Shown here: in pieces, positions 4,749-53,422 of the stretch | Numbering within the stretch: the stretch's first letter is position 1 | Layout of the letters: each line of letters starts with the position of its first letter | NCBI RefSeq assembly: GCF_001677475.2 | Contig: NZ_CP015229.1 | Direction: 5' to 3' (one strand) | Length of the DNA: 64,000 bases | Source of the DNA: Escherichia coli | GTDB taxonomy: Bacteria > Pseudomonadota > Gammaproteobacteria > Enterobacterales > Enterobacteriaceae | Position numbers and translations under genes: made by a program | Notes under the pieces: model-generated | Told to the model about the DNA's origin: nothing | The model's database searches: none | What the model saw: only the letters and a program-made list of their open reading frames with translations

Positions 4749-4925
4749 GGCGTACTTTCTCTGCTGTAATGGTATGGGCGTTTTTGTGCACACAAATCCG
4801 GCAGTGACACAAGGTGAACTATTAAATAGAGGGGGCGTGAAAGGGGCAAATTATTAATAGGGTGAAAAAATAATTAAATTATTAAAGGGTGAGGTATCAG
4901 GCATCGTCATAAAACATTGCACGAA

Positions 4926-5013
<88 letters not shown>

Positions 5014-5134
5014 TCTAACTCATTGTTTAAACTAAAATAATATTTTTATTATCGTTTAATTCAAACTTATTAAGCCTGCCGGTGATACGCTTCAGAACAT
5101 CCTGATTATTGTCGCTACTTATATCGTTCACCCT

Positions 5135-11995: not shown

Positions 11996-12022
11996 AGTGC
12001 TAACACCCAGATGTTTGTTTCT

Positions 12023-12103
12023 TGCCGGATGCGGCGTAAACGCCTTATCCAGCCTACAAGACGTGATCGATCCGTAGGCCTGATAAGCGAAGCGCATCAG
12101 GCA
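12023..12103. repeat. REP/BIME palindromic units
   Basis: gccggatgcggcgtaaacgccttatcc and inverted partner. Confidence 0.8.
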
Positions 12104-12113
12104 CTTCTGTGGT

Positions 12114-14558
12114 TTACCCCAACGCCTCCACAATCACCATTGCCGCCCGTTCCCCCGCCTTGCCATCCATAAACGCGTCGCAATAGTGATGGCGAATCTC
12201 CGCCAGCTTCGCCTGCAACGCCTTCCAGTCAAACGCCTCTGACAGCAGATAACGCAGTTCCGCCATATCGTGAGCGACGGGTAATATCGCGCGGATTCGC
12301 TGATCGGCGCTTTCAGGCGTGGAGTAGCTTTGCTCGCCATCGAGCAGTTCCGTCATGCCCGAAAAGTCGAGCAGGATCACCCGCTTATCAACGTGGATAG
12401 CATCGAAAATAAAGCCGCTGTTATCGGTGAGCACGTAATCGGCCTTTGCCAGTAGCGCCAGCGTGTGACGGGCGGAGTCGGTGCGCTGTTTTAAATGTCT
12501 GCGCGCCAGGGCCAGCGACGCCGCTTCTTCCGGGCGCGCGCAGGTGCCGTGGTGCAGTTTGCAAATCAGGTTCACATCACCGCTTAAGCGCCCCAATTTT
12601 TCTGCCCAGTGGGGCAGGGAGCTTAATGTGCCAAACGTGGGGGCGTAGAGCACCGTAGTTTTACGAAAATCGGGTTGGATATTTTCCGGCAACGAACGAT
12701 CGAAAGTGCCGTTATGCCAGGTGTCGAAGCGCGGGTTGCCAACCACTTTTGCATTGCCGAAATGTTCCAGCGCCTGCTGGCTGTAGTGGCTGTAACACAA
12801 AATGCGCTGATAAAAACGGTTCCAGTCGGCATGGTTCCACGTCTCTTTGGCTAAGCCGTACATGGCGCGGATGTTCACGGGGGAAAGGCCATTGAGCGCA
12901 GGCGTGTGGTAGGGGCTGACCAGGCATTTCACCCGCTGACCGTGTGCCTGCATTTCAGATAAGCGCATACCTTTAAGCTGCGGATCGACGATACTTTTTA
13001 GCGTCGCCAGCATTTCATCAAGAAACGGTTTAAACACGCGGTCGTTGATCACCAGCGTGCAACTCTGCCCCTGCGCCTGTAGGGATGTGATGATGGGGCG
13101 GTACAGCGCGTAGTGAAAGGAGGTTTCCATAAAAAAGCCGATGGTGTCGGCGATGGGTAACGCGGATGGCGTTGTGGCTACGGGCAATTTATTGAAAAAG
13201 TGACTAATATTATCAGTCACTTTTTGCTCGATATCACTAAAGCCCGGTCGCTGGTAACAAAGGCTCGGATAACAGGCCAGCCATTTGTCGGCGCGTAGCA
13301 GCGACTGCCAACACTCTTCAAGTGAGTGCTCATCGTTGCTCATCTGCTGCGCCAGTTGCGGGTAGTAGCGGCTGTTCACCAGATAAGCGCACACTTTGCG
13401 GCAGTCCCGCGCGTGCACCAGCCCCGGCAAACTTTTTAGCATCGTTCCCTGCGAAATTTCGCCGCCAAGGATCATCACCTGCCAGGGAATTTTCGCCAGG
13501 CTGGCCAGCAGAGTGTTCAGCACCTGAATATGTTTCTCCTGCTTGAGAATGACCGCGTCATCTTCCAGTAAAAGGTAGTTTTGCCAGCCCTGCCGTTGCG
13601 CCAGGCGCAGCGCCTGCAAGTGTGACTGCTGGCGGCCCCGTTGACCGTTTTCATCTTCGCAGGCGGCAAGGCGGGTGATCTTCTCAGGCGGAATATGCAG
13701 CAAAGCCAGTTCTTCACGGATCTGTTGTAAGCGATCCGGGCGTTTATCCAGATTCAGCAGAACGATCTGATCGATCACCTGATGGTTGATCGCCTGATGA
13801 TGAGTGGCGTTATGCAGACTCAGATAAGCATTGCGGAGCAGCGGATCGCGGACGATATCCGTAAGCGTCGCGTTTACTGGCGTGCTGGCCCCGAGAATAA
13901 AGTCTTTATCAAAGGTGTTGTGGCTGTGCGAGATACACAGAATCGTGCGCTCACCGGGCAGTTGTAGCGGGTTAACGCTGAAGTTATCGGTGAAACTTTT
14001 CTCTTCACCTAAATTGCAATCGTCATCGTAGCGGTGCTTTTTCAGGTAGTTACGGTGATAGCAAAAGGTGCCGTTGAGGATGTTATGCGAGCCAAAGCAG
14101 CGGCTTTTGAAAATGCGGTTGATATGGCTGTACCAGATGGGGATCTGGTCGGAACCGGAGATGAGCGCCCGGTGTTTTTGCATCATGGCGATGGTGTACG
14201 AGATTTTATCTGCCGGGTAGTAGTCGTCATCGTCCATGCAGAGGATGTATTCGCCGCGCGCCAGTTCGTTGAGCATATTACGTTTTTTGCCCAGCGGCAG
14301 TTTTTCCGGGTGATGGATGTAGCGGATATTGAAGGACTCCGGCTTGCCATTGGTCAGGCGGTCGATGATGTGTTGATGGCTTTGCGGGGAGTCGTCGAGG
14401 ATGACCAGTTCGCGGCGGTCTGCCGGGTAGTCCTGATAGCGGTACATATAGAGCAGGTACAGCAGGAATGCGCCGCGATTCCAGGTTGGCGTGACGACGC
14501 TGACAAATGGTTTTTCGCGGTGGGTGGCGAGTGTTTTGATGATGGTTGGTGTTGGCAT
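12114..14558 (-). CDS. Multidomain glycosyltransferase (GT2-like N-term, GT25-like middle, CDP-glycerol glycerophosphotransferase TagF-like C-term)
   Basis: DDDDYY (DxD) near N-term; LLEDDAV middle; VLYAPTFG (TagF-family LYAPTWR-like) C-term; start set to internal ATG 14556-14558 because upstream extension reads into a GC-rich repeat. Confidence 0.7.
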   Translation of the reverse strand: MPTPTIIKTLATHREKPFVSVVTPTWNRGAFLLYLLYMYRYQDYPADRRELVILDDSPQSHQHIIDRLTNGKPESFNIRYIHHPEKLPLGKKRNMLNELARGEYILCMDDDDYYPADKISYTIAMMQKHRALISGSDQIPIWYSHINRIFKSRCFGSHNILNGTFCYHRNYLKKHRYDDDCNLGEEKSFTDNFSVNPLQLPGERTILCISHSHNTFDKDFILGASTPVNATLTDIVRDPLLRNAYLSLHNATHHQAINHQVIDQIVLLNLDKRPDRLQQIREELALLHIPPEKITRLAACEDENGQRGRQQSHLQALRLAQRQGWQNYLLLEDDAVILKQEKHIQVLNTLLASLAKIPWQVMILGGEISQGTMLKSLPGLVHARDCRKVCAYLVNSRYYPQLAQQMSNDEHSLEECWQSLLRADKWLACYPSLCYQRPGFSDIEQKVTDNISHFFNKLPVATTPSALPIADTIGFFMETSFHYALYRPIITSLQAQGQSCTLVINDRVFKPFLDEMLATLKSIVDPQLKGMRLSEMQAHGQRVKCLVSPYHTPALNGLSPVNIRAMYGLAKETWNHADWNRFYQRILCYSHYSQQALEHFGNAKVVGNPRFDTWHNGTFDRSLPENIQPDFRKTTVLYAPTFGTLSSLPHWAEKLGRLSGDVNLICKLHHGTCARPEEAASLALARRHLKQRTDSARHTLALLAKADYVLTDNSGFIFDAIHVDKRVILLDFSGMTELLDGEQSYSTPESADQRIRAILPVAHDMAELRYLLSEAFDWKALQAKLAEIRHHYCDAFMDGKAGERAAMVIVEALG

Positions 14559-14596
14559 GGTGTTTGGGTGAGTTAAGGGGTGAATGTGATGAATGT

Positions 14597-14725
14597 GCGC
14601 GCTGATGCCCTCACCCCGACCCTCTCCCACAGGGAGAGGGAGAGAACCAGCGCCGATTTTAATACCGTGCTCGATCGGTTCCCTCGCCCCTTTGGGGAGA
14701 GGGTTAGGGTGAGGGGCAAAGCGCG
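14597..14725. repeat. GC-rich ~130-bp nested-palindrome intergenic repeat, copy 1 (boxC/RSA-type)
   Basis: ccctcaccc...ccctctcccacagggagaggg...cccctcgcccctttggggagagggttagggtgaggg; near-identical copies at ~21948 and ~24236. Confidence 0.8.
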
Positions 14726-14736
14726 CACAGAGCGAC

Positions 14737-15705
14737 TCACGTCAGCAGCGAAAACGCTGAAAGCAGCGGCTCTGCCGCACATAACGACTGAATTTGCTGG
14801 CGAATAAACAGCGCATTTTCACTGGTCCGCCAGCGTTCAAACATGGCGAAGAGGGCGAAAATATCCTCCTTCCGCAGCGGAGAACCATCCAGCGTCCATA
14901 AACTGATTAACGTGCGGATAAGATAAAAATCGCACACCAGCGGGAAATAATCCGCCCCGTCTGCCTGCCCGATCGCATCGTGGTAAACGCGGTAGATCAG
15001 GTAATTACGCAAAATCCAGGGTGAAGTGGTGAAATGCTGCTGCCAGGTAGTTTGCCACTGCGCCTGAAGCTGCTGATGTAACAGGGCTTCGCTGTTGGCG
15101 TCATGCAATGTCAGTAAAGAAACCTGCAACGGCAGCGAGGCTTTGCGCGGGCTTTCCGGCAGAATCGACCAGTCAAACGCAAAACTTCCGAGCAGCGTCA
15201 CCAGCTGGCGTGCCAGCTGTGGCACAGGTGGCAACTGGGCGAACTGTGCCTGTAGCGTACCTTTTCGCGCATGGTCGGCCAGCGCCTGCGGCAGCGTCGT
15301 CAAACGGGCCAGAGTATCGCCATTCTTGCCCGGCATTTTACTGGCGCGGGAGAGCAGGATACCGACGGCATACAGTGACAATTCCGGGGTTAAATCGGCG
15401 AGCGTAAGGGTGCTCAAAATGACCTGGTTTAATATCACATCGCGTGCGGAAAGCTCACTGGCACTCTCTTCCATAGACCGATAGGTGAGCTGTAATTCAA
15501 ACGCACTGGCGTCGTTGAGCACCGCTTCGCAGCTTTCTGGCTCTGTAAGCATCAGACTCAGGCGAATTTCATTTTTCCATACCTTGCGGACATACAAAGG
15601 CGAACCAGGATGTTGTGCAATAAATTTGCGCACAAATTCAGGTTCGTAACATTCAATAAAACTCATAGGAGGCTTCCAGTCTTTAATGCTGAACAGGAAT
15701 TGCAA
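14737..15705 (-). CDS. Hypothetical protein, Flag-2-associated
   Basis: 322-aa ORF co-oriented downstream of lfgN; no motif recognised by eye. Confidence 0.5.
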   Translation of the reverse strand: MQFLFSIKDWKPPMSFIECYEPEFVRKFIAQHPGSPLYVRKVWKNEIRLSLMLTEPESCEAVLNDASAFELQLTYRSMEESASELSARDVILNQVILSTLTLADLTPELSLYAVGILLSRASKMPGKNGDTLARLTTLPQALADHARKGTLQAQFAQLPPVPQLARQLVTLLGSFAFDWSILPESPRKASLPLQVSLLTLHDANSEALLHQQLQAQWQTTWQQHFTTSPWILRNYLIYRVYHDAIGQADGADYFPLVCDFYLIRTLISLWTLDGSPLRKEDIFALFAMFERWRTSENALFIRQQIQSLCAAEPLLSAFSLLT

Positions 15706-15793
15706 TTACCGTGCCGGAAAATTTTTTAATATAAAACAAAGAATTGTTTTTCAGGCGGAAAATCCATTTCCGCTATGGGGGAAGGAATGGTCA

Positions 15794-16222
15794 TTATTCC
15801 TGATAAATAAAATCCGCTTCGCTGCCTAAAAAAGACTGAATAAATTCATACTGACGAATCAACAATTCACCGTTTTTATCGTTATACGCCTTACAGCGTT
15901 CGGCTTTTTGTTCAAGTCGTTGCCACAAGCGTTGTGCCGCCTCTTTTTGTACGGCGGGTAACCAGTTAAAAATCTGCTCTAAACCTTCCCGATTGACACT
16001 GACGCCGAGAAATTTCAGCAGGCTGTGGCGTTGTTGGCTGTGGCTGTTTAACTGATCGTAGTGATGCATTATCTCATCATTCACCGCCAGTAATTCCTCA
16101 CTCGCGCGGCGAATCATGCAGATCCGCTGACGATGGAGAAGTTCGCGCAGGGAATCGTAAAGCGCGTCATCGTCACGAATTCCCTGCAACAACGCCTTCA
16201 CCTGTTGTAACCGGATACTCAC
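15794..16222 (-). CDS. lfgN: Flagellar chaperone FlgN-like protein
   Basis: 142 aa, position after flgM homolog. Confidence 0.65.
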   Translation of the reverse strand: MSIRLQQVKALLQGIRDDDALYDSLRELLHRQRICMIRRASEELLAVNDEIMHHYDQLNSHSQQRHSLLKFLGVSVNREGLEQIFNWLPAVQKEAAQRLWQRLEQKAERCKAYNDKNGELLIRQYEFIQSFLGSEADFIYQE

Positions 16223-16234
16223 TTCATCGGCCTC

Positions 16235-16513
16235 TTAGTTCTGGAAAAAACTCAGCATGTCGCTGGCTAACTGTTCGGTGTCCACTTGCAGGCTGCCGGA
16301 GGCCAGCATCGCCTGCATTTGCTCCACTTTGTCGCTGTCGATATCGCTCTCTTGCTGGTCGTTCAGCGTTTGCTGGGCAGACTGCAATCCCGCCTGGGTA
16401 ATGTCGTCGGCGCTTAGCGTCGTGGTGGTGGTCGCTGTGCTTTTACGCGGCTGGCTGGAGCCTGCCGTTGTGGCTGTCGGGCGATTGCCTGGCATAGTCG
16501 GGGTGATTTTCAT
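16235..16513 (-). CDS. lfgM: Anti-sigma-28 factor FlgM homolog
   Basis: 92 aa, Ser/Thr-rich N-term, FlgM-like C-terminal helices. Confidence 0.7.
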   Translation of the reverse strand: MKITPTMPGNRPTATTAGSSQPRKSTATTTTTLSADDITQAGLQSAQQTLNDQQESDIDSDKVEQMQAMLASGSLQVDTEQLASDMLSFFQN

Positions 16514-16593
16514 CGCAACCTCGTCTCGGTATTTAGGTGGGTTACTCCGGTAAAGCGGTTAACAGGCGGCAAAACTTTAATCGCCTGCGCAAA

Positions 16594-17331
16594 TTACTCC
16601 GCGCCTACCGTCGTCACCACGCCGCTTTCCGCCACCATCGCGCTGATGACCCGCTGGCTGCTGGCGTTACGTACTTTCACCATCTCGCCTTTGCGACCAT
16701 TTTTCAGCGCCACGCCGGGCATCGAGGCGGTGATCCCCGCGTTCTGGAAAACAATCATCACCGGCTGATCGCGCTCGACCAGCACCGGAGACACCAGTTC
16801 TTCTTTGGTAAGCGGCCTGCCTGGTTGCAGCGCGTGCTTACTGCTTAAACCAATCGCGTCATCGAGCTCCATCAACACATCGCGACGCTGGGCGCTGACG
16901 TTGTAGGGCTTCAGCTCCACATCATTCGCGGTGAGAGGCGTATCGCGGGCAATCAGTGACTTCGCCATCACCACCGGCACCAGAACATCCGGGCGCACCG
17001 CCACGTTCATCTGCCAGCTTTGCGGGCAACTGACGGTGAAGTTCATGCGGTTGAGGGCGATTTCCGCAGGCGATGTCAGCGTGACGCCGGGTGTTGTAAT
17101 ACAGGGCGCGGCGGTCGCAATCTGCGACGGAATATAGACCTTAAAGGTGTAGCGATAGTCATGCCATTGCCGCTGTTGCGCCAGCGATTCAATTTCCTGG
17201 CTCGCGGCATTCAGCACCTGGGCGTTGACTTGTTCCCGCGCGCTGTGTTGCACGGGGTGGACGGCGGCGTAGCCCGGTAAGGCCAGCACCAGGAGGAAGA
17301 ACAACTTCCGCCTGCAAAATTGAAAACTCAT
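16594..17331 (-). CDS. lfgA: Flagellar basal-body P-ring formation protein FlgA homolog
   Basis: 245 aa with signal peptide; divergent from flgB homolog. Confidence 0.75.
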   Translation of the reverse strand: MSFQFCRRKLFFLLVLALPGYAAVHPVQHSAREQVNAQVLNAASQEIESLAQQRQWHDYRYTFKVYIPSQIATAAPCITTPGVTLTSPAEIALNRMNFTVSCPQSWQMNVAVRPDVLVPVVMAKSLIARDTPLTANDVELKPYNVSAQRRDVLMELDDAIGLSSKHALQPGRPLTKEELVSPVLVERDQPVMIVFQNAGITASMPGVALKNGRKGEMVKVRNASSQRVISAMVAESGVVTTVGAE

Positions 17332-17360
17332 AAACCCTTTCTCATCAGTGACTTAAAAAA

Positions 17361-17377
17361 TGGCACGGCGATTGCTT
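17361..17377 (+). promoter_or_regulatory. Candidate sigma-54 promoter (TGGCAC-N5-TTGCT) for lfgBCDEFG
   Basis: tggcacggcgattgctt ~35 bp upstream of lfgB start; LafK is a sigma-54 activator. Confidence 0.6.
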
Positions 17378-17412
17378 AGCGTATGCGTATTGAAGCAGGA
17401 GTGACGCAGGAA

Positions 17413-17748
17413 ATGGGGATCAGTTTTCAACAGGCATTGGGAGTGCATCCGCAGGCAGTGAAGTTACGTCTTGAGAGGACCGAGCTACTGACTGCGAATC
17501 TGGCGAATGTCGATACGCCAAATTTCAAGGCTAAAGATATTGATTTTGCCAGGGAGATGCAACGGGCAAATAACGTGGCGGTGGATGTCCAGTACCGCGT
17601 GCCGATGCAGCCGTCGGAAGATGGCAACACCGTGGAACTGAACAGCGAACAGGCGCGGTTTTCACAAAATAGTATGGATTATCAAAGCAGTTTGACCTTT
17701 CTGAATCTGCAAATTAGCGGCATCAGAGAGGCCATTGAAGGGAAATAA
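17413..17748 (+). CDS. lfgB: Flagellar basal-body rod protein FlgB homolog
   Basis: ANLANVDTPNFKAKDIDF rod-protein N-terminal motif; start set to ATG 17413. Confidence 0.85.
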   Translation: MGISFQQALGVHPQAVKLRLERTELLTANLANVDTPNFKAKDIDFAREMQRANNVAVDVQYRVPMQPSEDGNTVELNSEQARFSQNSMDYQSSLTFLNLQISGIREAIEGK

Positions 17749-17750
17749 GC

Positions 17751-18182
17751 ATGTCATTTACTGATATCTATCAGATTTCCGGCTCGGCGATGACGGCGCA
17801 AACGCTACGTCTGAATACCGTCGCCAGTAACCTGGCGAATGCTAATGCGCCCGCCAGCAGCGAGGCGCAGGCGTATAAAGCGCGCAGCCCGGTGTTTGCG
17901 GCGGTGTATCACCACAGCTTGCTGGCGGGTACACATCGTCATGCCATTGACGGTGCCAGCGTGCAGGTGCAGGACGTGCTGCAAACCGGCGGGGCGGTGA
18001 AACGCTATGAACCGCATTCACCTCTGGCGGATGCTAACGGGGATGTCTGGTATCCCGACGTCAACGTGGTGGAACAGATGGCGGACATGATGTCGGCTTC
18101 GCGCGATTTTGAAACCAACGTCGATGTGCTCAACAACGTGAAAAGTATGCAGCAAAGTTTGCTGAAACTGGGAGAAGCCTGA
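17751..18182 (+). CDS. lfgC: Flagellar basal-body rod protein FlgC homolog
   Basis: 143 aa; SNLANANA motif. Confidence 0.85.
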   Translation: MSFTDIYQISGSAMTAQTLRLNTVASNLANANAPASSEAQAYKARSPVFAAVYHHSLLAGTHRHAIDGASVQVQDVLQTGGAVKRYEPHSPLADANGDVWYPDVNVVEQMADMMSASRDFETNVDVLNNVKSMQQSLLKLGEA

Positions 18183-18895
18183 TGAATACCCTGGCGCTGA
18201 ATGCGCAATCGCCGCAGCCGACCGCCACGGCGGAAAGCAATAATGTGGCGGCCAGCGACACGACAAGCAGCAGCGATAGCTCGCCCGTCGATACCTTCCT
18301 GACGCTGTTTGTCGCCGAGATCCAAAACCAGGACCCGACCGACCCAACCGACGCCACCGAATATATCGACCAGCTTTCGTCGATGGCGCAGGTGGCGATG
18401 ATGGAAGAGATGAGCGTGCAGGCCAACACCAACGCGGTGCTGATGAGCAACATTCAGGTGATGGCGCTCGGCAACCTGGTGGGCGACGACATTATGGTAC
18501 AGACCTCCGCCTTGCAGGTAAGCGACCAGACTATTAACGGTCGCGCCACGCTGGACGATGCCTGTACCACTGCCGATCTCCACTTTACCGATGCCGCAGG
18601 CGATGACTACACCGTTTCTCTGATCCCGCAGGGCAGTTCGTCTGTCGGGCCAGGCCAGGTCGATTTCTCGATTAATCCGGCGGATTACGGTATCCCGCCG
18701 GGCGATTACGACGTCTCGGTAGTCACCAACACCGGGGAAGAAGAGGTGCCGATTGAAGTCTCCGGCGAAGTGGAAGATGTGCGCATCCCGCTCGACGGCA
18801 GCTCTCCGGTGCTCAACGTTGCAGGCGTCGGCGAAGTGCCGTTCACCATGATTAGCCAGTTTGGCGTACCCGATGCCGACAGTGATGTGGCGTGA
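18182..18895 (+). CDS. lfgD: Flagellar hook assembly protein FlgD homolog
   Basis: FLTLFVAEIQNQDPTDP FlgD N-terminal motif. Confidence 0.8.
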   Translation: MNTLALNAQSPQPTATAESNNVAASDTTSSSDSSPVDTFLTLFVAEIQNQDPTDPTDATEYIDQLSSMAQVAMMEEMSVQANTNAVLMSNIQVMALGNLVGDDIMVQTSALQVSDQTINGRATLDDACTTADLHFTDAAGDDYTVSLIPQGSSSVGPGQVDFSINPADYGIPPGDYDVSVVTNTGEEEVPIEVSGEVEDVRIPLDGSSPVLNVAGVGEVPFTMISQFGVPDADSDVA

Positions 18896-18911
18896 TGTCC
18901 GGTGCCAAATT

Positions 18912-18993
18912 GCCTGATGCGCTTCGCTTATCAGGCCTACATGAATCTGCATGGTTTTGTAGGCCGGATAAGGTGTTCACGCCGCATCCGGCA
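18912..18993. repeat. REP/BIME palindromic units
   Basis: cctgatgcgcttcgcttatcaggcctac ... ggccggataaggtgttcacgccgcatccggc. Confidence 0.8.
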
Positions 18994-19038
18994 AAACAAC
19001 GGGCACGCTGTCAAAATTTGAATTAACAGGAAGACACA

Positions 19039-20241
19039 ATGAGTTATGAAATTGCCGCAACGGGGCTGAATGCCGTTAACGAACAGCTGGACGGGATCAG
19101 TAACAACATCGCCAACGCCGGAACGGTGGGCTATAAGTCGATGACCACCCAGTTTTCCGCCATGTATGCCGGAAGTCAGGCGATGGGCGTCAGCGTGGCG
19201 GGCACCGCGCAAAGCATTTCGCGCGGCGGTTCGCTGGTCTCCACCGGTAACGCGCTCGATTTAGCGATTAACAACGATGGCTTTTTTGTTACCTGCGACA
19301 GCGCGGGCAACATTTCCTACACCCGCGCCGGATCGTTTGAAACCGACAAAAACGGCTATATCGTCAACGCCTCAGGCGCTTATTTGCAGGGCTACCCGGT
19401 CGATGACAGCGGCACTTTGCAAACCGGTACAGTCACAGATATCCAGATCAAAACCGGTAATATTCCGGCGCAGGCCAGCAGCAGCCTGACTTTTACCGCT
19501 AACTTCAACGCCAGCGATGAAGCTATCGACCGCACCACCGTACCGTTCGACCCGACCAACAGCAGCTCGTACACCGACAGCTACACCACCACGGTGTATG
19601 ACTCATTAGGCAACGAACATTCGGTATGCCAGTACTTCACCAAAACCAGCGATAACACCTGGGAAGTACAGTACACCTTCGACGGTCAGCAGCAGACCGG
19701 CGTTCCGGCGACGACGTTAACCTTCGACCCGAACACCGGGAAGCTGACTTCGCCAACCACGCCGCAGACCATTGAGTTTCAGACCGACGCAGCCGCACCC
19801 ATCGACTTAACCGTCGATTACTCGACCTGTACGCAATACGGCTCGGACTTCTCGGTCACCACCAACTCTGCCAACGGCTACGCTTCCGCGACTCAAAACG
19901 GTGTGCAGGTCGATGACGATGGCAAAGTTTACGCTACCTACAGCAACGGCGAGCGCATGTTGCAGGGGCAGGTGGTGCTGGCGACCTTCCCGAATGAAAA
20001 CGGCCTGGAGGCAGTGAGCGGCACCGCGTGGGTACAAACGGGCGAATCCGGCACCCCGCTGATTGGCGTTCCCGGCTCCGGCACCTGCGGCACGCTGTCG
20101 TCGGGCGTGCTCGAAAGCTCTAACGTCGATATCACCAGCGAACTGGTCAACCTGATGACCGCCCAGCGTAACTATCAGGCCAACACCAAAGTTATCGCTA
20201 CCAGCACGCAGCTCGATGACGCGCTGTTCCAGGCAATGTAA
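19039..20241 (+). CDS. lfgE: Flagellar hook protein FlgE homolog
   Basis: 400 aa; conserved flg N- and C-terminal helices. Confidence 0.85.
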   Translation: MSYEIAATGLNAVNEQLDGISNNIANAGTVGYKSMTTQFSAMYAGSQAMGVSVAGTAQSISRGGSLVSTGNALDLAINNDGFFVTCDSAGNISYTRAGSFETDKNGYIVNASGAYLQGYPVDDSGTLQTGTVTDIQIKTGNIPAQASSSLTFTANFNASDEAIDRTTVPFDPTNSSSYTDSYTTTVYDSLGNEHSVCQYFTKTSDNTWEVQYTFDGQQQTGVPATTLTFDPNTGKLTSPTTPQTIEFQTDAAAPIDLTVDYSTCTQYGSDFSVTTNSANGYASATQNGVQVDDDGKVYATYSNGERMLQGQVVLATFPNENGLEAVSGTAWVQTGESGTPLIGVPGSGTCGTLSSGVLESSNVDITSELVNLMTAQRNYQANTKVIATSTQLDDALFQAM

Positions 20242-20978
20242 TGGATCGCTTGATTTATACCGCCCTGAGCGGTGCTTCTCAGACCCTGTACGAGCAGCAG
20301 ATTAGCGCAAACAACCTGGCGAACGTCAACACCAATGGTTTTCGCGCCGATATGGCAATGGCAACCAACGACAAGGTGAAAGGCGGCGGCTTCGACACGC
20401 GCTATATGGCGCAGGAAGGGGCCAGCGGCGTGAACGACAGCACGGGTGTAGCGGAGAAAACCGAACGCCCGCTGGACGTGGCGATTCAGGGCGCGGGTTA
20501 CATTGCGGTGCAGGATAAAAACGGCAACGAAGTTTATACCCGCAACGGCAACATTCAGCAGGACGACCAGGGTCAACTGACTATCGACGGCAATCTGGTG
20601 CTGGGGGATAACGGGCCGATCATTCTGCCGCCGAACGCCATTGCTTCGTTTGGCAGCGACGGCACGTTGTCGGTGACGCCCGATGACGGCGACGTGACCG
20701 CGACGATGGATATCGACCGCCTGAAGCTGGTGGATATTCCGGTCGCTAACCTGGCGAAAAACGGCGAAGGGATGCTGGTAACTGCCGACGGCGTACCGGC
20801 TCAGCGCGATGAAAACATCAAAGTTAGCGGTGGTTTTCTGGAGGGCAGTAACGTCTCGGCGGTGAGTGAGATGATGTCGTCCATCGCCATGAACCGCCAG
20901 TTCGAAGCGCAGATCAAGATGATGAAAACCGCCGAAGATATCAGCGACGCGGGCAACCGCTTATTGCGCGGCTCGTAA
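20241..20978 (+). CDS. lfgF: Flagellar basal-body rod protein FlgF homolog
   Basis: 245 aa rod protein. Confidence 0.8.
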   Translation: MDRLIYTALSGASQTLYEQQISANNLANVNTNGFRADMAMATNDKVKGGGFDTRYMAQEGASGVNDSTGVAEKTERPLDVAIQGAGYIAVQDKNGNEVYTRNGNIQQDDQGQLTIDGNLVLGDNGPIILPPNAIASFGSDGTLSVTPDDGDVTATMDIDRLKLVDIPVANLAKNGEGMLVTADGVPAQRDENIKVSGGFLEGSNVSAVSEMMSSIAMNRQFEAQIKMMKTAEDISDAGNRLLRGS

Positions 20979-20985
20979 CCGCACA

Positions 20986-21122
20986 TCGTAGGCCGGATAA
21001 GGCGTTCACGCCGCATCCGGCAGTTATGCGGTGGCGCCTGATGCGACGCTTTGCGTCTTATCAGGCCTACAAGCCTGTGCCCAAACCGTAGGCCGGATAA
21101 GGCGTTCACGCCGCATCCGGCA
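20986..21122. repeat. Cluster of REP/BIME palindromic units (at least three)
   Basis: Repeated ggccggataaggcgttcacgccgcatccggca and gcctgatgcgacgctttgcgtcttatcaggcctac. Confidence 0.85.
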
Positions 21123-21156
21123 ATCGGCGGCAAAAAACAACACGGAATTTACCACC

Positions 21157-21942
21157 ATGAACGCAGCACTATGGAGCAGCAAAACCGGCCTCTCAGCGCA
21201 GGATGCTGAAATGAGCGCGATTGCCAACAACATCGCCAACGTTAACACCACCGGCTTCAAGCGTGACCGGGTGATGTTTCAGGATCTGTTCTACCAGACC
21301 CAGGAAGCGCCGGGCGCGATGCTCGACCAGAACAACATCATGCCGACCGGGCTGCAATTCGGTAGCGGCGTGCGCATTGTCGGCACCCAAAAAACCTTCA
21401 CCGAAGGCAACGTCGAAACCACCGACAACGCGATGAATGTCGCCATTATGGGGCAGGGGTTTTTGCAGGTGCAAAAGGCTAATGGCGATATCGCCTATAC
21501 CCGCGACGGCAATTTGCAGGTGAACGCCGACGGCGTACTGACCAACTCGCAGGGCTTGCCGTTGCAGCCGGAAATCGATGTTCCGGCGGGGGCGACCAAT
21601 GTTGCGTTTGGCGAAGATGGTACGGTGACGGCGATTCTTCCTGGCGACAGCGACGTGACCGAGTTAGGGCAACTGACGCTGGTTAACTTCGCTAACCCGG
21701 CGGGGCTTTCCGCTGAGGGTGACAACCTCTATCTGGAAACCGCCGCCAGCGGTCAGCCGACCGAAGGTGTGCCGGGCGAAGATGGGCTTGGCACTTTGCA
21801 GGACAATGCACTGGAAGGCTCGAACGTGGATATCGTCAACGAAATGGTGGCGATGATTACGGTGCAACGCGCGTACGAGATGAACGCCAAAATGGTGTCG
21901 GCAGCGGACGATATGTTGCAGTACATCAGCCAGACGCTGTAA
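21157..21942 (+). CDS. lfgG: Flagellar basal-body rod protein FlgG homolog
   Basis: Start set to internal ATG (MNAALWSSKTGLSAQ...); upstream extension in ORF track reads through REP cluster. Confidence 0.85.
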   Translation: MNAALWSSKTGLSAQDAEMSAIANNIANVNTTGFKRDRVMFQDLFYQTQEAPGAMLDQNNIMPTGLQFGSGVRIVGTQKTFTEGNVETTDNAMNVAIMGQGFLQVQKANGDIAYTRDGNLQVNADGVLTNSQGLPLQPEIDVPAGATNVAFGEDGTVTAILPGDSDVTELGQLTLVNFANPAGLSAEGDNLYLETAASGQPTEGVPGEDGLGTLQDNALEGSNVDIVNEMVAMITVQRAYEMNAKMVSAADDMLQYISQTL

Positions 21943-21947
21943 GGGCG

Positions 21948-22082
21948 TGGGGGCAATGTGTGGCCTGATGCCCTCACCCCGGCCCTCTCCCACAGGGAGA
22001 GGGAGAAAAGCGGCGCACGATGTAACAACGCGCACAGGTCAGTCCCCTCGCCCCTTCGGGGAGAGGGTTAGGGTGAGGGGGA
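21948..22082. repeat. GC-rich ~130-bp nested-palindrome intergenic repeat, copy 2
   Basis: Near-identical to copies at 14597 and 24236. Confidence 0.8.
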
Positions 22083-22148
22083 ACAAACAGCTCCGCACCC
22101 ACCAAACAACCGGCCACCCCGTGGCCTGCAACACTAAACAGGCAGAAC

Positions 22149-22814
22149 GTGAAAAATTATCTCTGGCTGGTGGCACTGCTTCCCCTGCTTAGCGGGTGTG
22201 AATCGCAGGCTATTCTGGTCAAAAAAGACGACGCATACTTTGCGCCACCGAAAACCGAAGCGCCGCCTCCGGCAGACGGGCGTGCCGGAGGCGTGTTTGA
22301 AACTGGCTACAACTGGTCGCTCACCGCCGACCGACGAGCTTACCGTGTGGGCGATATCCTGACGGTGATTCTCGAAGAATCGACCCAGTCGAGCAAACAG
22401 GCGAAAACCAACTTTGGCAAAAGCAACAGTGTCGATATCACCGCGCCAACGGTATTCGGTCACACCAAAAATAAGCTTTCCGGTTCCATCGACGCCAACC
22501 GCGACTTTGACGGCAGCGCCACCTCCCAGCAGCAGAATAGCCTGCGCGGGGAGATCACCGTTTCCGTCCATGCGGTGCAGCCCAACGGCATCCTGGAAAT
22601 TCGCGGCGAGAAATGGCTCACCCTCAACCAGGGTGATGAGTACATCCGCTTGAGCGGCCTGGTACGCGCCGATGATATCCAGAACGACAACTCGGTTTCC
22701 TCCCAGCGGATCGCCGATGCCCGCATCTCCTATGCCGGACGCGGCGCGTTAAGCGACGCCAACGCCGCAGGTTGGCTGACGCGGCTGTTTAACCATCCTC
22801 TGTTCCCGATTTAA
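22149..22814 (+). CDS. lfgH: Flagellar L-ring lipoprotein FlgH homolog
   Basis: Lipobox LLSGC after signal peptide; GTG start. Confidence 0.85.
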
Positions 22815-23929
22815 TGCCGGAGAGTGCAATGCAAAACTGGATAAAGACGGTGATGATCGCCGTAAGCCTGGTGCTGCCCGGCGTGGCGCTGGCGCAATCG
22901 CTGGAGTCGCTGGTCAACGTACAGGGCGTGCGTGAAAACCAACTGGTCGGCTATAGCCTGGTGGTCGGCCTTGACGGCACTGGCGATAAAAACCAGGTCA
23001 AATTCACTAACCAGACCATCACCAATATGCTGCGCCAGTTTGGCGTGCAACTGCCGAATAAAATCGACCCGAAGGTGAAAAACGTCGCCGCGGTGGCGGT
23101 GAGCGCCACGCTGCCGCCGATGTACTCGCGCGGGCAAACCATTGACGTCACCGTCTCGTCGATTGGCGATGCCAAAAGTATTCGCGGCGGCACTTTGCTG
23201 CTGACCCAACTGCACGGCGCAGATGGCGAAGTTTATGCCCTGGCGCAGGGTAGCGTGGTGGTCGGCGGGATGAATGCCACCGGGGCCAGCGGCTCAAGCG
23301 TAACGGTTAATACGCCAACCGCCGGGTTAATTCCCAACGGCGCGACGGTGGAGCGCGAGATCCCCAGCGATTTTCAGATGGGCGATACCATCACCCTCAA
23401 CCTGAAACGTCCGTCGTTTAAAGATGCCAACCACATTGCAGCAGCGATCAACGCCTCGTTTGGCGGCATCGCCACCGCGCAGAGTTCCACCAACGTTACC
23501 GTGCGTGCCCCCACCAGCCCCGGCGCGCGGGTGGCGTTTATGTCGCAACTGGATGATGTGCAGGTGCAGGCGGAGAAAATCCGCGCCCGCGTGGTGTTTA
23601 ACTCACGCACCGGCACGGTGGTAATGGGTGACGGTATCGCGTTGCATGCGGCGGCGGTGTCGCACGGCAGTCTTACTGTCTCGATTAACGAAACCAGCAA
23701 CGTCAGCCAGCCGAATGCCTTTGCCGGTGGGCGCACGGCGGTGACGCCGCAGAGCAATATCGCGGTGAATCATGCGCGCCCTGGCGTGGTGAGCTTGCCG
23801 GAGTCGAGCAGCCTGAAAACGCTGGTGAATGCCCTGAACAGTTTAGGCGCAACGCCGGACGACATTATGTCGATTTTGCAGGCGCTGCATGAAGCGGGCG
23901 CGCTGGATGCCGACCTGGAGGTGATCTGA
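22814..23929 (+). CDS. lfgI: Flagellar P-ring protein FlgI homolog
   Basis: 371 aa with signal peptide. Confidence 0.85.
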
Positions 23930-24228
23930 TGAAAGTGAACGCCAGCGGTGGGATTGACGGCAGCGACGCGTTAATGGGGCCGAAGGTTCAGGCCAATGAT
24001 ATCAAGCAGGCCGCGGAACAGTTCGAGGCGATTTTTTTACGCAACATGTTGAAAGAGATGCGTAAAACCAACGAGTTGTTTGATTCGAAAGATAACCCAT
24101 TTAACAGCGATTCGGTGCGCATGATGCAGGGGTTTTATGACGATGAGTTGTGTAACACCCTGGCGCAGCAGCACGGGATTGGGATTGCGGCGATGATTGT
24201 AAAGCAGTTGTCGCCGAAGGGGAAATGA
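23929..24228 (+). CDS. lfgJ: Short FlgJ-like rod-binding protein (no muramidase domain)
   Basis: 99 aa, position between flgI and flgK homologs. Confidence 0.65.
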   Translation: MKVNASGGIDGSDALMGPKVQANDIKQAAEQFEAIFLRNMLKEMRKTNELFDSKDNPFNSDSVRMMQGFYDDELCNTLAQQHGIGIAAMIVKQLSPKGK

Positions 24229-24235
24229 GGGGAGG

Positions 24236-24366
24236 TGCACGCTGATGCCCTCACCCCGGCCCTCTCACTAGGAGAGGGAGCAGACTGGTGCCGTATTTAA
24301 CAATGTGCTCGATCGGTCCCCTCTCCCTTGAGGGAGAGGGTTAGGGTGAGGGGGCAATGCGCCCAC
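24236..24366. repeat. GC-rich ~130-bp nested-palindrome intergenic repeat, copy 3
   Basis: Near-identical to copies at 14597 and 21948. Confidence 0.8.
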
Positions 24367-24436
24367 CATTACCCACTTAAGAATCCACAACCTAACGCCG
24401 CTTTTAACCGGCACGATTTACCGGTAAGGATCCAAC

Positions 24437-30048: not shown

Positions 30049-30088
30049 GACTTGCCGGATGCGGCGTGAACGCCTTATCCGGCCTACA
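30049..30088. repeat. REP palindromic unit
   Basis: gccggatgcggcgtgaacgccttatccggcctac. Confidence 0.8.
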
Positions 30089-30092
30089 AACA

Positions 30093-38703: not shown

Positions 38704-38881
38704 ATCCAGCTTGCAATGAAAATAACGCCCGCCTAATATGTGCGCGTTTTGTTATTCCACAAACTGCAAGGAGGTAAATCATGACAAATCCTTTATCAAT
38801 GACTCTTTGCAGACCTTTCCAGGATTAATTCTTTTTTTTCTTGCCCTGGATCCGTCTGCCATTTCCTGATTTTTATATTTA

Positions 38882-39007
38882 TATACTCTAAATAATTCGA
38901 GTTGTAGGAAGGCGACAAGCGAGTGAATCCCTAGGAGCTTACGAAAGTAAGTGACTGGGGTGAACGAACGCAGTCGTAGTACATGCAACTTGAAGTATGA
39001 CGAGTAT
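38882..39007. repeat. ERIC (IRU) element
   Basis: Contains gtgaatccctaggagcttac and aagtaagtgactggggtgaacg (ERIC1R/ERIC2 primer sites); terminal inverted repeats atatactc/gagtata. Confidence 0.85.
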
Positions 39008-39009
39008 AA

Positions 39010-48664: not shown

Positions 48665-48740
48665 GCCGATATAGCTCAGTTGGTAGAGCAGCGCATTCGT
48701 AATGCGAAGGTCGTAGGTTCGACTCCTATTATCGGCACCA
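48665..48740 (+). tRNA. thrW: tRNA-Thr (anticodon CGU)
   Basis: gccgatatagctcagttggtagagcagcgcattcgtaatgcgaaggtcgtaggttcgactcctattatcggcacca; cloverleaf with CGT anticodon and CCA end. Confidence 0.95.
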
Positions 48741-49574: not shown

Positions 49575-49917
49575 AGGGCGTCTCCTGTAACGGTTTATTA
49601 TGTCCGCCACTAGAGAGGCTAATCTCATGGGGGGCGGAACCGGACGGGGTTAGCCTTACCGGCGTTACAGGAAACCGGCGCGTCTTGCGACGCCCCCGCC
49701 CGGCCCGCCATTGAGGTGTAGCCGAACGCACGACACAAAAAAGACGCTGGTGCGTCAAGTGTCGCCTGTAACGGTTTTCAGGAGGCTAATCCCGACGCCT
49801 GATTTTGCAGGCGCGGGAGAAAGATACTGCGATTGGTCATGAGTGGCAAGGGCTACATCCTGTTTACCGACATCTCACGCAAAAATACCCTGATTATTAA
49901 TAGCGAAAATCAGTTTC

Positions 49918-52900
49918 TTATTTTGGCGGTAGCTTTTTGCGGTTCTTTGCCAATTGGAATCCTTCAGGTAACGGTTTGAATTTATCGCCGCCTTTAGGCC
50001 AGCGTTTTGCCCTGCTCTGAAATGCCCTTAACGAGTCGATATCCAGTGTTGCAGCGATCACAAAGTCATTATCGCCGCCCTTCACACGAGCAATATCACG
50101 CATAAAGGGTTCTTTTGCCGGGGAACGTACGCGACTATCGCCGTATTTTCGGTTATTCACTAAAATGGTATAGGCATGAATATCCAGCGCTGCTGATTCA
50201 ATCAACGATGCAAACGTATCCAGATCTTTATTCCAGCTCAATACCATTAATGCATCGAGCGCGCCCTGAAAACGGATCCTCGCTTTACTATTCTGGAGTT
50301 CAGAGCAAATCATAACGCCAAAATTGACGCCGTGATGAATATATACCGGCTTACGTTGTTTAACATTAAGTGTCGAGTCCCAAGACTTACCATAAGTTGA
50401 AAATAATGCCTCATCTTCACCTACGGCGGGTTCCAGCTTGGGTTGCCATATTTTGACACTCGCTGGATAGCCGAGTCTGTTATCTGAAAGGACAAGTACG
50501 GCCTCACTCTTCAGTTGATTATCGCCTAAGTGGCGGTATTCTGTTCCCGCAATTAGACTGATACCCGCCGAACTCAAACGATCAGCAATACTGTTAACCC
50601 AGCGTAACGGGATTGAAAGCTCGGGGAATAAAACATAATCAGGTTTAGGAGATAGTTTCAATGTTGCATTAACCAGTTCAGAAATCCGCTGGTACCTTGA
50701 ACGGGACAAGTTAGATTTATTGCAGGCCATTTTAGCCCAGTCGTCTTCCTCTGTTTTAATGCTGGTTAGCGCAACGACAATTTTATGTTTCCTGTCAGTG
50801 CCAATATGAATGAATTTCTTAGGCCGAGCTTTTTTTGTCGCTTCATCTGAGTCCTGCTCCGATGCTAGTAACGTCGGTTTGATCCATACACCGCGTAATG
50901 CTTGAGTATATTTTGCCCAAACGGTGGACGGTCTCTCATCTGGTTTTTTGTCGGATGTAGAGGGTAATCCAACACATTCGGGGGCCAGTTCTGATATTTC
51001 AGCGGGAGTTAAAGGACGTGTAGGGAAAATGTAAGGTAGGTAACTTTCGTTCTTACGATTTCCTTTAGCCACTTTTTCCAGTCGGGTATTCTTGGTTGAT
51101 TTCAAAAATAGCTTAATAACGTCAATATCAATAAGCGATGAGTCCCTCATTAATTTCAGTATTTTAACTTCTTTTTTACGATCACGCTGATTAACAAGTT
51201 TTTCTGCCGACTGACTCTTTACGATCTGTTTATAAGGTTCCTTTGCTAAATCAGCTCGAGCTACCAATGGCGCTTTTAAATAAAAATCTGCTGAATCAAA
51301 GCGAAGATCCAGTAAATCCTTTAGATTTGTCAGACTTTGTGAAATATGATTAAAAAATGTATCCGCAAGGCACTCTTCTTTCTTTGAACGTTTATCAAGA
51401 AATAATCTGTCAGGACTGTAATATCGTGTCGCTGCATCAACAAATAGCCAGCTTAATGTGCCTTTTATACAGCGCCAAAGATCATTTACTGCTCGAGTTT
51501 TGCAACCATTTATAGTCACTTCCTTACCTGAAGTAATCACCGATGCCAACAGGTTGATGGACTCGTAAGCTTTAAGTACAATTTTTTCCGCGTGCTGCCA
51601 TTCATTCATACTGATAGCAAAGCCAAGCAGCCTTGGCAGATAACTAAAATGTGCAAATAGATTATCAGCCCTAAGAATATGGTTGTAGGCAAACTGATAA
51701 AACTCTTCCCGCTGTTCTTTCCATTCACTTGGAGACAGATCTCGTGCCAGTGTTTCAACGTAGCGTAATTGCAGTGACCAGCCCAAACGACGAATGGTTA
51801 ATCCATCCGCACGGCGCAGAGTATCGGCATTTTCACCTACACTACCGGCAGCGGAAAGGACTTTAGCTGCGGTGGAGTGTTCCAGTTGATCCGGTGAAGG
51901 CATCAAGCGGTGTTCACTAGAAAGCTCGTAGATCTCCTTTTCGATACTGTCGAGCAGATCTATTCCTGCCCTCCCTTGAAGCACGAAAAGTTTTTGCTTA
52001 TCGGATTGTAACTGGATGGTGGTCTTACCCTGGAAATGCTCGCCCTGCTGTATTTGCCATATTTGTTTTTTCTCGTTTTTCAGATAAACGCAATCATTGC
52101 CAAGCCTATCTTGCAGCAATAACATAAATTCGTGATTATTAGTAATTTTACCTGTATCGCGTATTACAAGGAACATATCATCGACATAACGACCGTAGTG
52201 AATTGGCGACAGTTTTTCAATGACTAATTTATCCCAATGGTGTAGCAATATATTGGAAATGATCCGACTGGCTGTTAATCCAATGACCAGACCACCATTA
52301 ATAACAGGTGTTTTGTACGCTATTTTTTTTCCAAATGCCGCTGCGCCGTCAGACCAGTGCTTTAAGAATACAGCTAACTGTGCAGTAAACGCTTTTTCAT
52401 GCTCAGTCAGTTTTATGTTTAGTGTGTTATAGAGATCATCAGAGGTTATAGCCAGTGGATCAATAAAATGATAGTAACTTTTTAAATCCAGTGAGGCGGC
52501 GATAATGTCACGATCTTTTTCCAACTCGTCACGTATAGCTTTTAAGCCATCACCACGCCATTTTTGGTAGGGCTGGAAATAGGGGCTAAAAGAACCCACG
52601 GCACTGATATGGAATGGATTATCCTGCTCATTGCTAAATAATTCATCATTACGAATACGTTTTAGCCGCGCGCCATAACAACAGTTGTCTAAGCTGGCAT
52701 CAAATTTATGCCCGACCATATTAATCCATAGTGCAGAGATAATGTGACTATCAACCGGGAAGTCACCAATAATACGAAACTCTGGTATCAGATCAAAATT
52801 ATTAAATAAATGGTCGGCTGCTCGTTTAGGATTAGAAAAGTGGACGTGTCCATTTTGGAATTCATGTTTTTTCTTTGTGGTTAATTTTTTCGGTAACAAA

Positions 52901-53127: not shown

Positions 53128-53330
53128 GCGTTATCGTCCTTAGATTAAAGTCTGTACAGAATTAGCCAGCCGTTTCATGCCCGAAGGAGGTGCTCTTGAC
53201 ACCAGTAATCCATCAGTGAGGCTGGCAATAATTTTGATTTGTATCCATGTTACACGCTCCCCGCAACCAGTCCGAGCATATATTTGTCACATTTTTCCCG
53301 AAAGTGATTAAGTTTGAATTTTTTGTTTAA

Positions 53331-53349
53331 TGTCGATTTTTAGTCGACA
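53331..53349. promoter_or_regulatory. Inverted repeat tgtcga-N7-tcgaca in divergent promoter region (candidate operator)
   Basis: Palindrome ~75 bp upstream of AbiEi-like gene; AbiEi antitoxins autoregulate via promoter inverted repeats. Confidence 0.35.
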
Positions 53350-53422
53350 AAATGAGGAATAAGTAAATTATTTCTTGCTGTGGCGTATCCCTGAACCTAC
53401 ACTGGTTTAAATATTTGTACTA

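Follow-up and report, generated by a model that had tools for sequence, protein, structure and literature searches.

Three long palindromes lie at gene junctions of the Flag-2 locus in the 64-kb stretch of Escherichia coli DNA analysed here (the window), and they raise the question of what these sequences are and whether they do anything for the genes between which they sit. An earlier note on this DNA had described them as near-identical GC-rich repeats of the boxC/RSA class that could act as terminators, mRNA stabilisers or recombination sites.

Three BoxC pairs at Flag-2 gene junctions

All three repeats were found within a few bases of where they had first been placed, as palindromic elements of ~132-134 bp at 14595-14728, 21958-22084 and 24235-24366, which accounts for all places in the window. 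Element limits were read outward to the terminal inverted repeat GTGCGCGCT...AGCGCGCAC. Searching the window with the 19-mer GAGAGGGTTAGGGTGAGGG and allowing up to 3 mismatches gave six matches, namely both arms of each copy, and 0 matches were obtained in 100 shuffles of the sequence; the triplex-type half-motif GGGNGAGGGNNNGGGNGAGGG occurred at the identical six arm sites and at no further ones in the 64 kb. A chance origin of the three elements was rejected on these two results. The elements and their arms are as follows.

14595..14728, no strand assigned: pair A, whole palindrome (sequence, alignment), at the junction of a 'hypothetical' gene and a glycosyltransferase gene, both on the minus strand
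14608..14640, minus strand: type B arm of copy A, second loop TCG, CCCTCTCCCTGTGGGAGAGGGTCGGGGTGAGGG (regex of the published consensus)
14681..14715, plus strand: type A arm of copy A, second loop TTA, CCCTCGCCCCTTTGGGGAGAGGGTTAGGGTGAGGG (regex of the published consensus)
21958..22084, no strand assigned: pair B, whole element, with the lfgG stop at 21940-21942 on one side and the lfgH start at 22149 on the other
21971..22003, minus strand: type B arm of copy B, loop CCG (regex of the published consensus)
22045..22079, plus strand: type A arm of copy B, loop TTA (regex of the published consensus)
24235..24366, no strand assigned: pair C, whole element, preceded by the lfgJ stop (24226-24228) and followed by the conserved region upstream of lfgK (from ~24373)
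24248..24278, minus strand: type B arm of copy C, loop CCG, degenerate (alignment; 1 mismatch to the half-motif; missed by the regex)
24319..24352, plus strand: type A arm of copy C, loop TTA (regex of the published consensus)

The intergenic location that had been claimed was borne out, since each element lies between co-directional genes and begins 8-16 nt past the upstream stop codon. At junction A the 'hypothetical' gene occupies 14737-15666 and the glycosyltransferase gene ~12114-14558, both on the minus strand; at junction C the lfgK start (24437) lies downstream of the pair. Pair A has the layout GTGCGCGCT-GATG-[type B arm]-spacer-[type A arm]-GCAA-AGCGCGCAC, and in pair B the GCGCGC block at the right terminus is degenerate, so that the right end falls at ~22084. 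The description 'near-identical' suits the arms, which are almost invariant among the three copies, but not the whole copies, which are 73-81% identical and differ in their ~40-nt spacer.

The repeat family to which the arms point has been treated under the names BoxC, PIT and TMECO by Bergler 1992, Hoyne et al. 2000, Hoyne & Maher 2002 and Holder et al. 2015. Its motif consensus is CCCTCNCCC-N3-6-GGGNGAGGG-N3-GGGNGAGGG, with a second loop of TTA in type A and CCG in type B, and paired TMECO sites in E. coli K-12 always consist of one type A and one type B motif in inverted orientation (Holder et al. 2015, PMC4666352). Each window copy is such an inverted pair: reading from the left, a type B motif with loop CCG or TCG, lying on the minus strand, is followed by a plus-strand type A motif with loop TTA. 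When scored with a regex slightly relaxed from the published form, five of the six arms matched the consensus; the exception was the type B arm of copy C, because its hairpin is 2 nt shorter and one G-block carries a mismatch. The type A arm of copy A equals K-12 TMECO nos. 7, 11 and 15 except for the final G of those entries, the type B arm of copy B equals nos. 1 and 4 except for the final base, and the type A arm of copy C equals no. 2, again except for the final base. The same outward-facing architecture is seen in K-12 TMECO 17+18 at lldD|trmL. Moreover, the orthologous copies in the Flag-2 locus of E. coli 042 are already catalogued as TMECO 507-510 (NC_017626 300826-300859, 300900-300935, 308062-308095 and 308137-308171; Table S8 of Holder et al., PMC4666352), which map to 4771-4878 and 12007-12114 of that locus. 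All three copies are, like the family, intergenic and part of a dispersed multicopy set.

The three palindromes are thus ordinary copies of the already described E. coli BoxC repeat in its known paired form, and the earlier assignment to the boxC class was correct. In the BoxC literature the unit is either the motif of 34-37 nt or a BoxC of ~56 bp, while here the ~134-bp composite behaves as a unit and carries conserved spacer ends and GCGCGC termini; otherwise there is no essential difference. Consensus oligonucleotides form an intrastrand purine-motif triplex in vitro by CD and NMR, and no triplex signal was seen in vivo by DMS footprinting (Holder et al., PMC4666352); the arms in the window agree in sequence with the types tested and may be able to form a triplex.

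The elements also generate spurious ORFs, as had been noted, but the GEGRGEG peptides said to appear on both strands are confined to the glycosyltransferase ORF, whose 838-aa reading beginning VGEGRGEG is a false 5' extension through the element; the remaining spurious ORFs encode RPFGERVRVRG or LTLTLSPKGRG. For annotation, the elements are best masked as repeats. The biological gain is small, and no new system is revealed.

Distribution of BoxC and relationships of the copies

Across 5426 E. coli genomes the BoxC family was found at 85,305 places in 5407 genomes, with a median of 17 per genome, almost all of them chromosomal (50 of the 85,305 are plasmid-borne). The earlier note named as its refutation a similar density of the repeat throughout the genome with no link to transcript ends. 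The family is dispersed genome-wide; the 9.8 kb in Flag-2 hold three places, where a whole ~5-Mb genome has a median of 17, a local enrichment of roughly 100-fold above the genome average, and the earlier remark on local density was correct. In E. coli 042, 4 of the 12-13 TMECOs lie within Flag-2. The enrichment is real, yet Flag-2 is not the sole such locus. In the E. coli phn genes, phnD|phnE holds a BoxC pair facing inward, and phnK|phnL holds a full-length copy with a homologous spacer, 81-87% identical to each window copy. Local duplication as the origin of the three copies was rejected because none of them is closer to another window copy than to the one at phnK|phnL. Literature searches on repeats in Flag-2 and on RSA gave no usable report. 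The same architecture was present on at least 120 metagenome contigs, some in arrays of ~1 kb. As a side observation, inverted arms 0.3-3.5 kb apart are candidates for flanking a transposase gene.

States of the Flag-2 junctions across genomes

Comparison with other Flag-2 loci revealed junctions that are highly polymorphic, with elements often missing or altered, and the states seen were filled, inverted, halved, 22-bp footprint, tandem, REP-replaced and empty. Among ~1,200 complete E. coli genomes with Flag-2, window-like filled junctions numbered 733 (A), 191 (B) and 33 (C), and in Citrobacter the junctions are short and have no element. Junction A is inverted together with its spacer in Pseudocitrobacter and is reduced to a solo arm with partial spacer, visibly a deletion derivative of the ~134-bp pair, in E. 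whittamii and Escherichia sp. MOD1. At junction B, a tandem duplication was found in P. vendiensis, and in E. whittamii, MOD1 and one MAG the site is taken up by REP, alone or together with a further repeat. Junction C holds a REP pair at the identical site in E. coli 042 and E1V33, and in E. whittamii the 22-bp footprint TGCGCGCTTTGCCCCTCACCC is all that is left. In the loose sense, therefore, the suggestion of recombination sites fits, since inversion, half-deletion, footprints, tandem duplication and replacement all occur at exactly these junctions. The junctions make up a compact natural series in which the ~134-bp pair is seen acting as a unit and a solo BoxC arises from it through deletion, and the series agrees with the view in the literature that such motifs are a sign of instability between genes, sequence variability being significantly higher near TMECO loci than at control intergenic sites (Holder et al., PMC4666352). 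Filled and alternative alleles differ over the whole intergenic segment and not by a clean insertion. Part of the polymorphism could stem from recombination between divergent Flag-2 alleles and not from instability of the elements.

BoxC pairs as probable passengers and a probable source of local instability

Taken together, the paired BoxC elements are very probably dispensable, non-coding and non-autonomous passengers that cause local instability in Flag-2. This reading builds on what was observed: the family to which they belong, their architecture, their spread through E. coli genomes, the fact that Flag-2 can do without them and the variability of the junctions. A type B and a type A arm are inverted around a ~40-nt spacer, with GTGCGCGCT and AGCGCGCAC as the bounds in this enterobacterial subfamily, and the pair occupies the few free bases between a stop codon and the conserved initiation region of the next gene. 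The main demonstrable effect is on the DNA, where the junctions turn over fast between strains by deletion, inversion, tandem duplication and replacement; we propose that the long imperfect palindrome or a triplex-prone structure promotes this turnover. Once transcribed, the hairpin would have at most a modulating influence on mRNA. The passenger reading leaves the roughly 100-fold enrichment in Flag-2 without explanation. In addition, almost invariant arms beside a diverging spacer hint at homogenisation or at a sequence-specific constraint, and a merely neutral passenger would need neither. The lack of an in vivo triplex signal in the DMS footprinting of Holder et al. also counts against this reading.

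Possible mobility as the mode of arrival

One alternative, tentative and rather doubtful, is an active miniature mobile element: the type B and type A arms would be the two ends of the pair, an enzyme supplied in trans would move it, and the Flag-2 junctions would be preferred targets. This idea bears on the arrival of the copies and can hold alongside the passenger explanation. Such an element would fit a dispersed multicopy unit with ~45-nt conserved inverted termini and a variable interior, which occurs in both orientations at one site and in tandem arrays, always joins one arm of each type, and has between 1 and 29 copies depending on the E. coli strain. Of the classical features of MITEs, the terminal inverted repeats are present; target-site duplication was seen neither at the Flag-2 junctions nor in 120 metagenome copies, and the flanks of these same copies share no target motif beyond one G. 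No transposase is known or was seen, plasmids carry very few of the places, the filled alleles do not look like clean insertions, and Holder et al. saw no association of TMECOs with transposons, phages or plasmids (PMC4666352).

A more specific version, which we consider distinctly improbable, has the ~134-bp pair moved or copied as hairpin DNA by a putative single-strand (HUH/Y1-like) enzyme without target duplication, and such units would preferentially land in long operons with weak expression, Flag-2 and phn among them. If true, this two-ended unit would account for the obligatory pairing of A with B, for arms that do not vary, for the presence of both orientations at one site and of arrays, and for copy numbers that differ 1-29-fold between strains.

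Possible effects at the transcript level

For pair A, RNA folding predicts a single long hairpin, at -90.1 kcal/mol for the plus strand and -93.5 kcal/mol for the minus strand with z near -10, and the predictions for pairs B and C are -69.3 kcal/mol (z -3.5) and -78.3 kcal/mol (z -5.5), well under shuffled sequence. With predicted hairpins of -69 to -93 kcal/mol, a role in mRNA stabilisation or processing is plausible. REP elements stabilise upstream mRNA, and in other strains REP elements fill these same junctions. By analogy, a ~55-bp hairpin within the polycistronic lfg and glycosyltransferase messages would stop 3'-5' exonucleases, or an RNase III cut would uncouple the stability of upstream and downstream cistrons; the onset of the copies shortly after a stop codon, between co-directional genes, would suit either. 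As the explanation of the elements we nevertheless think this unlikely. Their orientation to transcription varies, copy A being flipped in Pseudocitrobacter, and many Flag-2 loci have no elements. Among 15 subfamily members all 33 predicted pairs were invariant or changed on one side, with compensatory change in 0/33, which lends the idea no help; since the arms are invariant, covariation is silent on selection for RNA structure. Earlier functional studies saw no RNA polymerase effect and found gene class and operon position unlinked to the elements.

That the elements are intrinsic terminators or attenuators delimiting operons inside Flag-2, as GC-rich hairpins at gene junctions had suggested, is largely refuted and has hardly any probability left, since no U-run follows the hairpin on the transcribed strand (plus-strand tails GCAAAGCGCG, GGAACAAACA and GGCAATGCGC; minus-strand tail of copy A CATCAGCGCG), a terminator scan gave no site at any of the three, the genes flanking copies A and B encode products that have to be produced jointly, the elements are absent from many Flag-2 loci that are otherwise intact, and PIT elements had neither promoter nor terminator activity in the published assays (Hoyne & Maher 2002, as summarised in PMC4666352). 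A conserved sigma-28-like motif does follow pair C closely, ahead of lfgK, and a transcript boundary may be located there.

Comparison with other repeats

The RSA repeat of E. coli K-12, the other class named at the outset, has a unit of ~150/151 bp and 6 copies in K-12; its length is similar to that of the three elements, which proves nothing by itself. ERIC/IRU and the Neisseria Correia/NEMIS repeats share with BoxC pairs a size of 100-160 bp and long inverted termini. These hairpin MITE-like repeats are co-transcribed with their neighbours as long RNA hairpins, and Correia elements are RNase III substrates. They have no sequence similarity to BoxC, Correia elements have a TA target duplication whereas none was seen for BoxC copies, and purine/pyrimidine blocks with triplex potential are specific to BoxC.

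A search of Rfam at gathering and E-value thresholds gave no family for the three elements; a plant microRNA precursor (30 bits against a gathering score of 90) was rejected as a chance match to a long hairpin. REP/BIME repeats (naRNA4 type in Rfam) resemble BoxC pairs in being palindromic intergenic repeats right after stop codons. They too differ from strain to strain and build alternating arrays, and other strains carry them at the very Flag-2 junctions discussed here. REPs have a cognate transposase family, the RAYTs, and none is known for BoxC. The two are unrelated in sequence: naRNA4, used as the REP consensus, matched none of the three elements with the E-value cut-off relaxed to 1, and its matches in the window lie at 4931, 18962, 20991 and 21091.

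Three inverted BoxC pairs at Flag-2 gene junctions

The three palindromic repeats that the earlier note had located at gene junctions of the Flag-2 (lateral flagella) locus were confirmed in the sequence of the window. A search of the 64-kb window with the 19-nt core GAGAGGGTTAGGGTGAGGG (up to 3 mismatches) yielded 6 matches, which are both arms of each copy, and shuffled sequence yielded 0; the half-motif GGGNGAGGGNNNGGGNGAGGG identified the same six sites. When the copies were aligned and read outward, the palindrome reached GTGCGCGCT at the left and AGCGCGCAC at the right, with the following extents.

14595-14728: copy A, flanked by two minus-strand genes, one 'hypothetical' and one for a glycosyltransferase
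21958 to ~22084: copy B, between lfgG and lfgH; right terminus degenerate
24235-24366: copy C, between lfgJ and lfgK

The flanking genes are co-directional in all three cases, and every copy begins 8-16 nt past the stop codon of the upstream gene and stops short of the conserved sequence in front of the downstream gene. The description of the copies as near-identical holds for the arms but not for the whole elements, which share just 73-81% identity because the ~40-nt spacer has diverged. Likewise, the spurious GEGRGEG reading frames were found in one case, a mechanically called 838-aa glycosyltransferase ORF that starts with VGEGRGEG inside copy A, but the low-complexity peptides of the remaining artefactual ORFs are different.

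Each copy is recognizable as an inverted pair of the BoxC element, also named PIT element or TMECO motif, with the consensus CCCTCNCCC-N3-6-GGGNGAGGG-N3-GGGNGAGGG (PMC4666352). Five of the six window arms fit this consensus, several being identical to K-12 table entries; the sixth, the type B arm of copy C, is slightly degenerate. All three copies combine a left, minus-strand arm of type B, whose second loop reads CCG or TCG, with a right, plus-strand arm of type A, whose second loop reads TTA. Strain K-12 has five paired sites, always one type A and one type B in inverted orientation, and its pair 17+18 in the lldD/trmL interval faces outward just as the window copies do (Holder et al., PMC4666352). 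Orthologues of the pairs at junctions A and B are present in E. coli 042, and since their four arms are catalogued as TMECO 507-510 (Supplementary Table S8, PMC4666352), the window copies are members of an already described family in an already described configuration. The boxC part of the guessed boxC/RSA class was thus correct, given the consensus fit, the A+B pairing and the listed E. coli 042 orthologues. A search of Rfam found no family matching the three copies.

Local enrichment and copies outside Flag-2

With a 121-nt copy as the query, 85,305 places were found, spread over 5407 of the 5426 complete E. coli genomes (median 17 per genome, range 1-32), only 50 of them plasmid-borne. For comparison, 23 motifs are catalogued in K-12, and the per-strain tables run from 1 to 29 (Holder et al., PMC4666352). 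By our own arithmetic, 17 places per ~5 Mb give ~0.03 expected per 9.8 kb; therefore, the three copies in 9.8 kb are a real local enrichment, and the genome-wide count bore out the earlier note's remark on their density, which in Flag-2 is above the genome average. Flag-2 accounts for 4 of the 12-13 motifs catalogued in E. coli 042.

Such clustering is not peculiar to Flag-2, as it was also found in another long E. coli operon, phn, where several internal junctions hold BoxC copies, and in metagenome contigs, some of which hold 11-14 arms within 9-15 kb, including ~1-kb arrays in which the arms alternate in orientation and recur every ~130-140 bp.

L084 596-735: phnK/phnL pair, full length, outward-facing, homologous spacer
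L085 about 600-725: phnD/phnE pair, inward-facing, resembling the joint between two tandem pairs
L165 4479-5380, L126 2573-3450 and L195 29-760: ~1-kb arrays in metagenome contigs

Many copies from soil-type metagenomes have additional internal hairpin modules. The BoxC family is modular, and its range reaches well outside enterobacteria. Local copying as the source of the three window copies was rejected, because none is closer to its neighbours than to the phnK/phnL copy (81-87% identity).

Turnover of the junctions

The Flag-2 region of the window matches the locus of E. coli 042, and that of further E. coli strains, at ~94% identity, and 50-64 kb of the window is ~97.5% identical to E. coli DNA. 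We collected 80 Flag-2-like loci via LfgE and placed the three junctions by their flanking proteins. Among these loci, TMECO arms are confined to those of Escherichia and Pseudocitrobacter, 89-94% identical to the window; the Citrobacter loci (76% identical) have empty junctions of 60-116 bp. The Pseudocitrobacter loci (L005, L006) share 91-92% DNA identity with window 9000-30300, about as close as the loci of other Escherichia species, whereas Citrobacter stands at 76%; this suggests a recent transfer of Flag-2 between genera.

At junction A, E. coli 042 and Escherichia sp. E1V33 have the same filled state as the window; in two Pseudocitrobacter species the whole element is inverted, including spacer and linkers. 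In E. whittamii and Escherichia sp. MOD1 a single type A arm with ~20 nt of spacer is left, and at this site the solo BoxC is visibly a deletion product of the pair. Junction B is filled in E. coli 042 and E1V33, holds two pairs in tandem in P. vendiensis, and in E. whittamii, MOD1 and a MAG is occupied by REP, either by itself or together with another repeat of ~100 bp (GTAGGCACGATAAGTGAGTGGACGGCGCACATGAG...CCGTCCACACACGCATCGGGCAAT; about three tandem copies in MOD1).

L007 12802-13008: ~100-bp repeat at the lfgG/lfgH junction of E. whittamii, beside REP units
L010 12803-13273: the same repeat in MOD1, beside REP units

At junction C the filled state of the window is shared by P. vendiensis and E. 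coli MFDS1022581. Identical flanks (AAATGAGG ... ACTTAAGAATCC) enclose a REP pair instead in E. coli 042, E1V33 and the MAG, and all that is left in E. whittamii is a 22-bp footprint, TGCGCGCTTTGCCCCTCACCC. Among the ~1,200 complete E. coli genomes that contain most of the locus, window-like filled junctions numbered 733 (A), 191 (B) and 33 (C), counts that omit inverted or strongly diverged copies. Given these variable states and the partial occupancy, the elements are dispensable for the Flag-2 locus and junction turnover is quick, in agreement with the published finding of much greater variability at TMECO loci than at control intergenic sites (Holder et al., PMC4666352).

Possible roles of the pairs

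The three copies are known BoxC/TMECO pairs, and they are best explained as passenger repeats that are tolerated because they occupy the little free DNA behind a stop codon. On this reading their palindromic, triplex-prone DNA makes the junctions unstable; triplex formation by BoxC has been demonstrated in vitro, though not in vivo (PMC4666352).

Each copy is predicted to fold, as RNA or single-stranded DNA and on either strand, into a single extended hairpin (-69 to -93 kcal/mol), and the predicted energies of all copies are well below those of shuffled sequence. Transcribed copies could possibly serve as a REP-like exonuclease barrier or an RNase III site; however, 15 aligned subfamily members show no compensatory change, because the arms are invariant, and the orientation of the copies relative to transcription is not fixed among Flag-2 loci.

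The arms are invariant while the spacers drift, every pair combines type A and type B, and some operons hold several pairs. Because the passenger reading leaves the spread, the arm invariance, the A+B pairing and the operon clustering unaccounted for, we give a small chance to the BoxC pair being genuinely mobile, as a unit whose two ends differ. Neither the Flag-2 junctions nor 120 metagenome copies showed a target-site duplication or a conserved target. The proposed terminator role is not supported, since no T-run follows any copy, a terminator scan of the window gave no site at the copies, and BoxC/PIT had neither promoter nor terminator activity and left RNA polymerase unaffected in the assays of Hoyne and Maher (2002), as summarised in PMC4666352.

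Other features of the window and of Flag-2 loci

The Flag-2 locus seems to gather intergenic repeats generally. REP/BIME clusters lie at its gene junctions, two of them reaching the Rfam naRNA4 gathering score.

4928-5014, 12021-12106, 18908-18994, 20982-21126 and 30051-30090: REP/BIME clusters
24373-24410: TAAGAATC-N11-GCCGCTTT, just downstream of copy C
48665-48737: tRNA
49627-49814, minus strand: C4 antisense RNA and isrK, past the tRNA
38870-39009 and 57742-57881: 140-nt direct repeat, 92% identical, copies 18.9 kb apart

These clusters are polymorphic: the flgD/flgE gap has a REP pair in the window versus only 23 bp in E. coli 042, and the flgF/flgG gap of E. coli MFDS1022581 is 26 bp. 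The consensus of sigma-28 flagellar promoters is TAAAGTTT-N11-GCCGATAA. The motif downstream of copy C is similar to it and is kept, spacing included, in the loci of Escherichia, Pseudocitrobacter and Citrobacter. It is a candidate lfgK promoter of the late class; if so, junction C would be a true transcript boundary.

The C4 antisense RNA and isrK are hallmarks of P4-like elements. By homology to E. coli Z1323CEC0003, the adjoining window ~50000-56000 has genes for an RNA-directed DNA polymerase of 1069 aa and for an AbiEi/AbiEii pair, besides fragments of integrase, and looks like a defence island. The copies of the 140-nt direct repeat flank the tRNA and island region and may mark the island boundaries. 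In E. coli MFDS1022581, genes for a type II restriction endonuclease and a cytosine methyltransferase (L208 835-3551) are inserted between flgM and flgA, within Flag-2; restriction endonuclease and cytosine methyltransferase features likewise lie under hits H1, H56 and H57.
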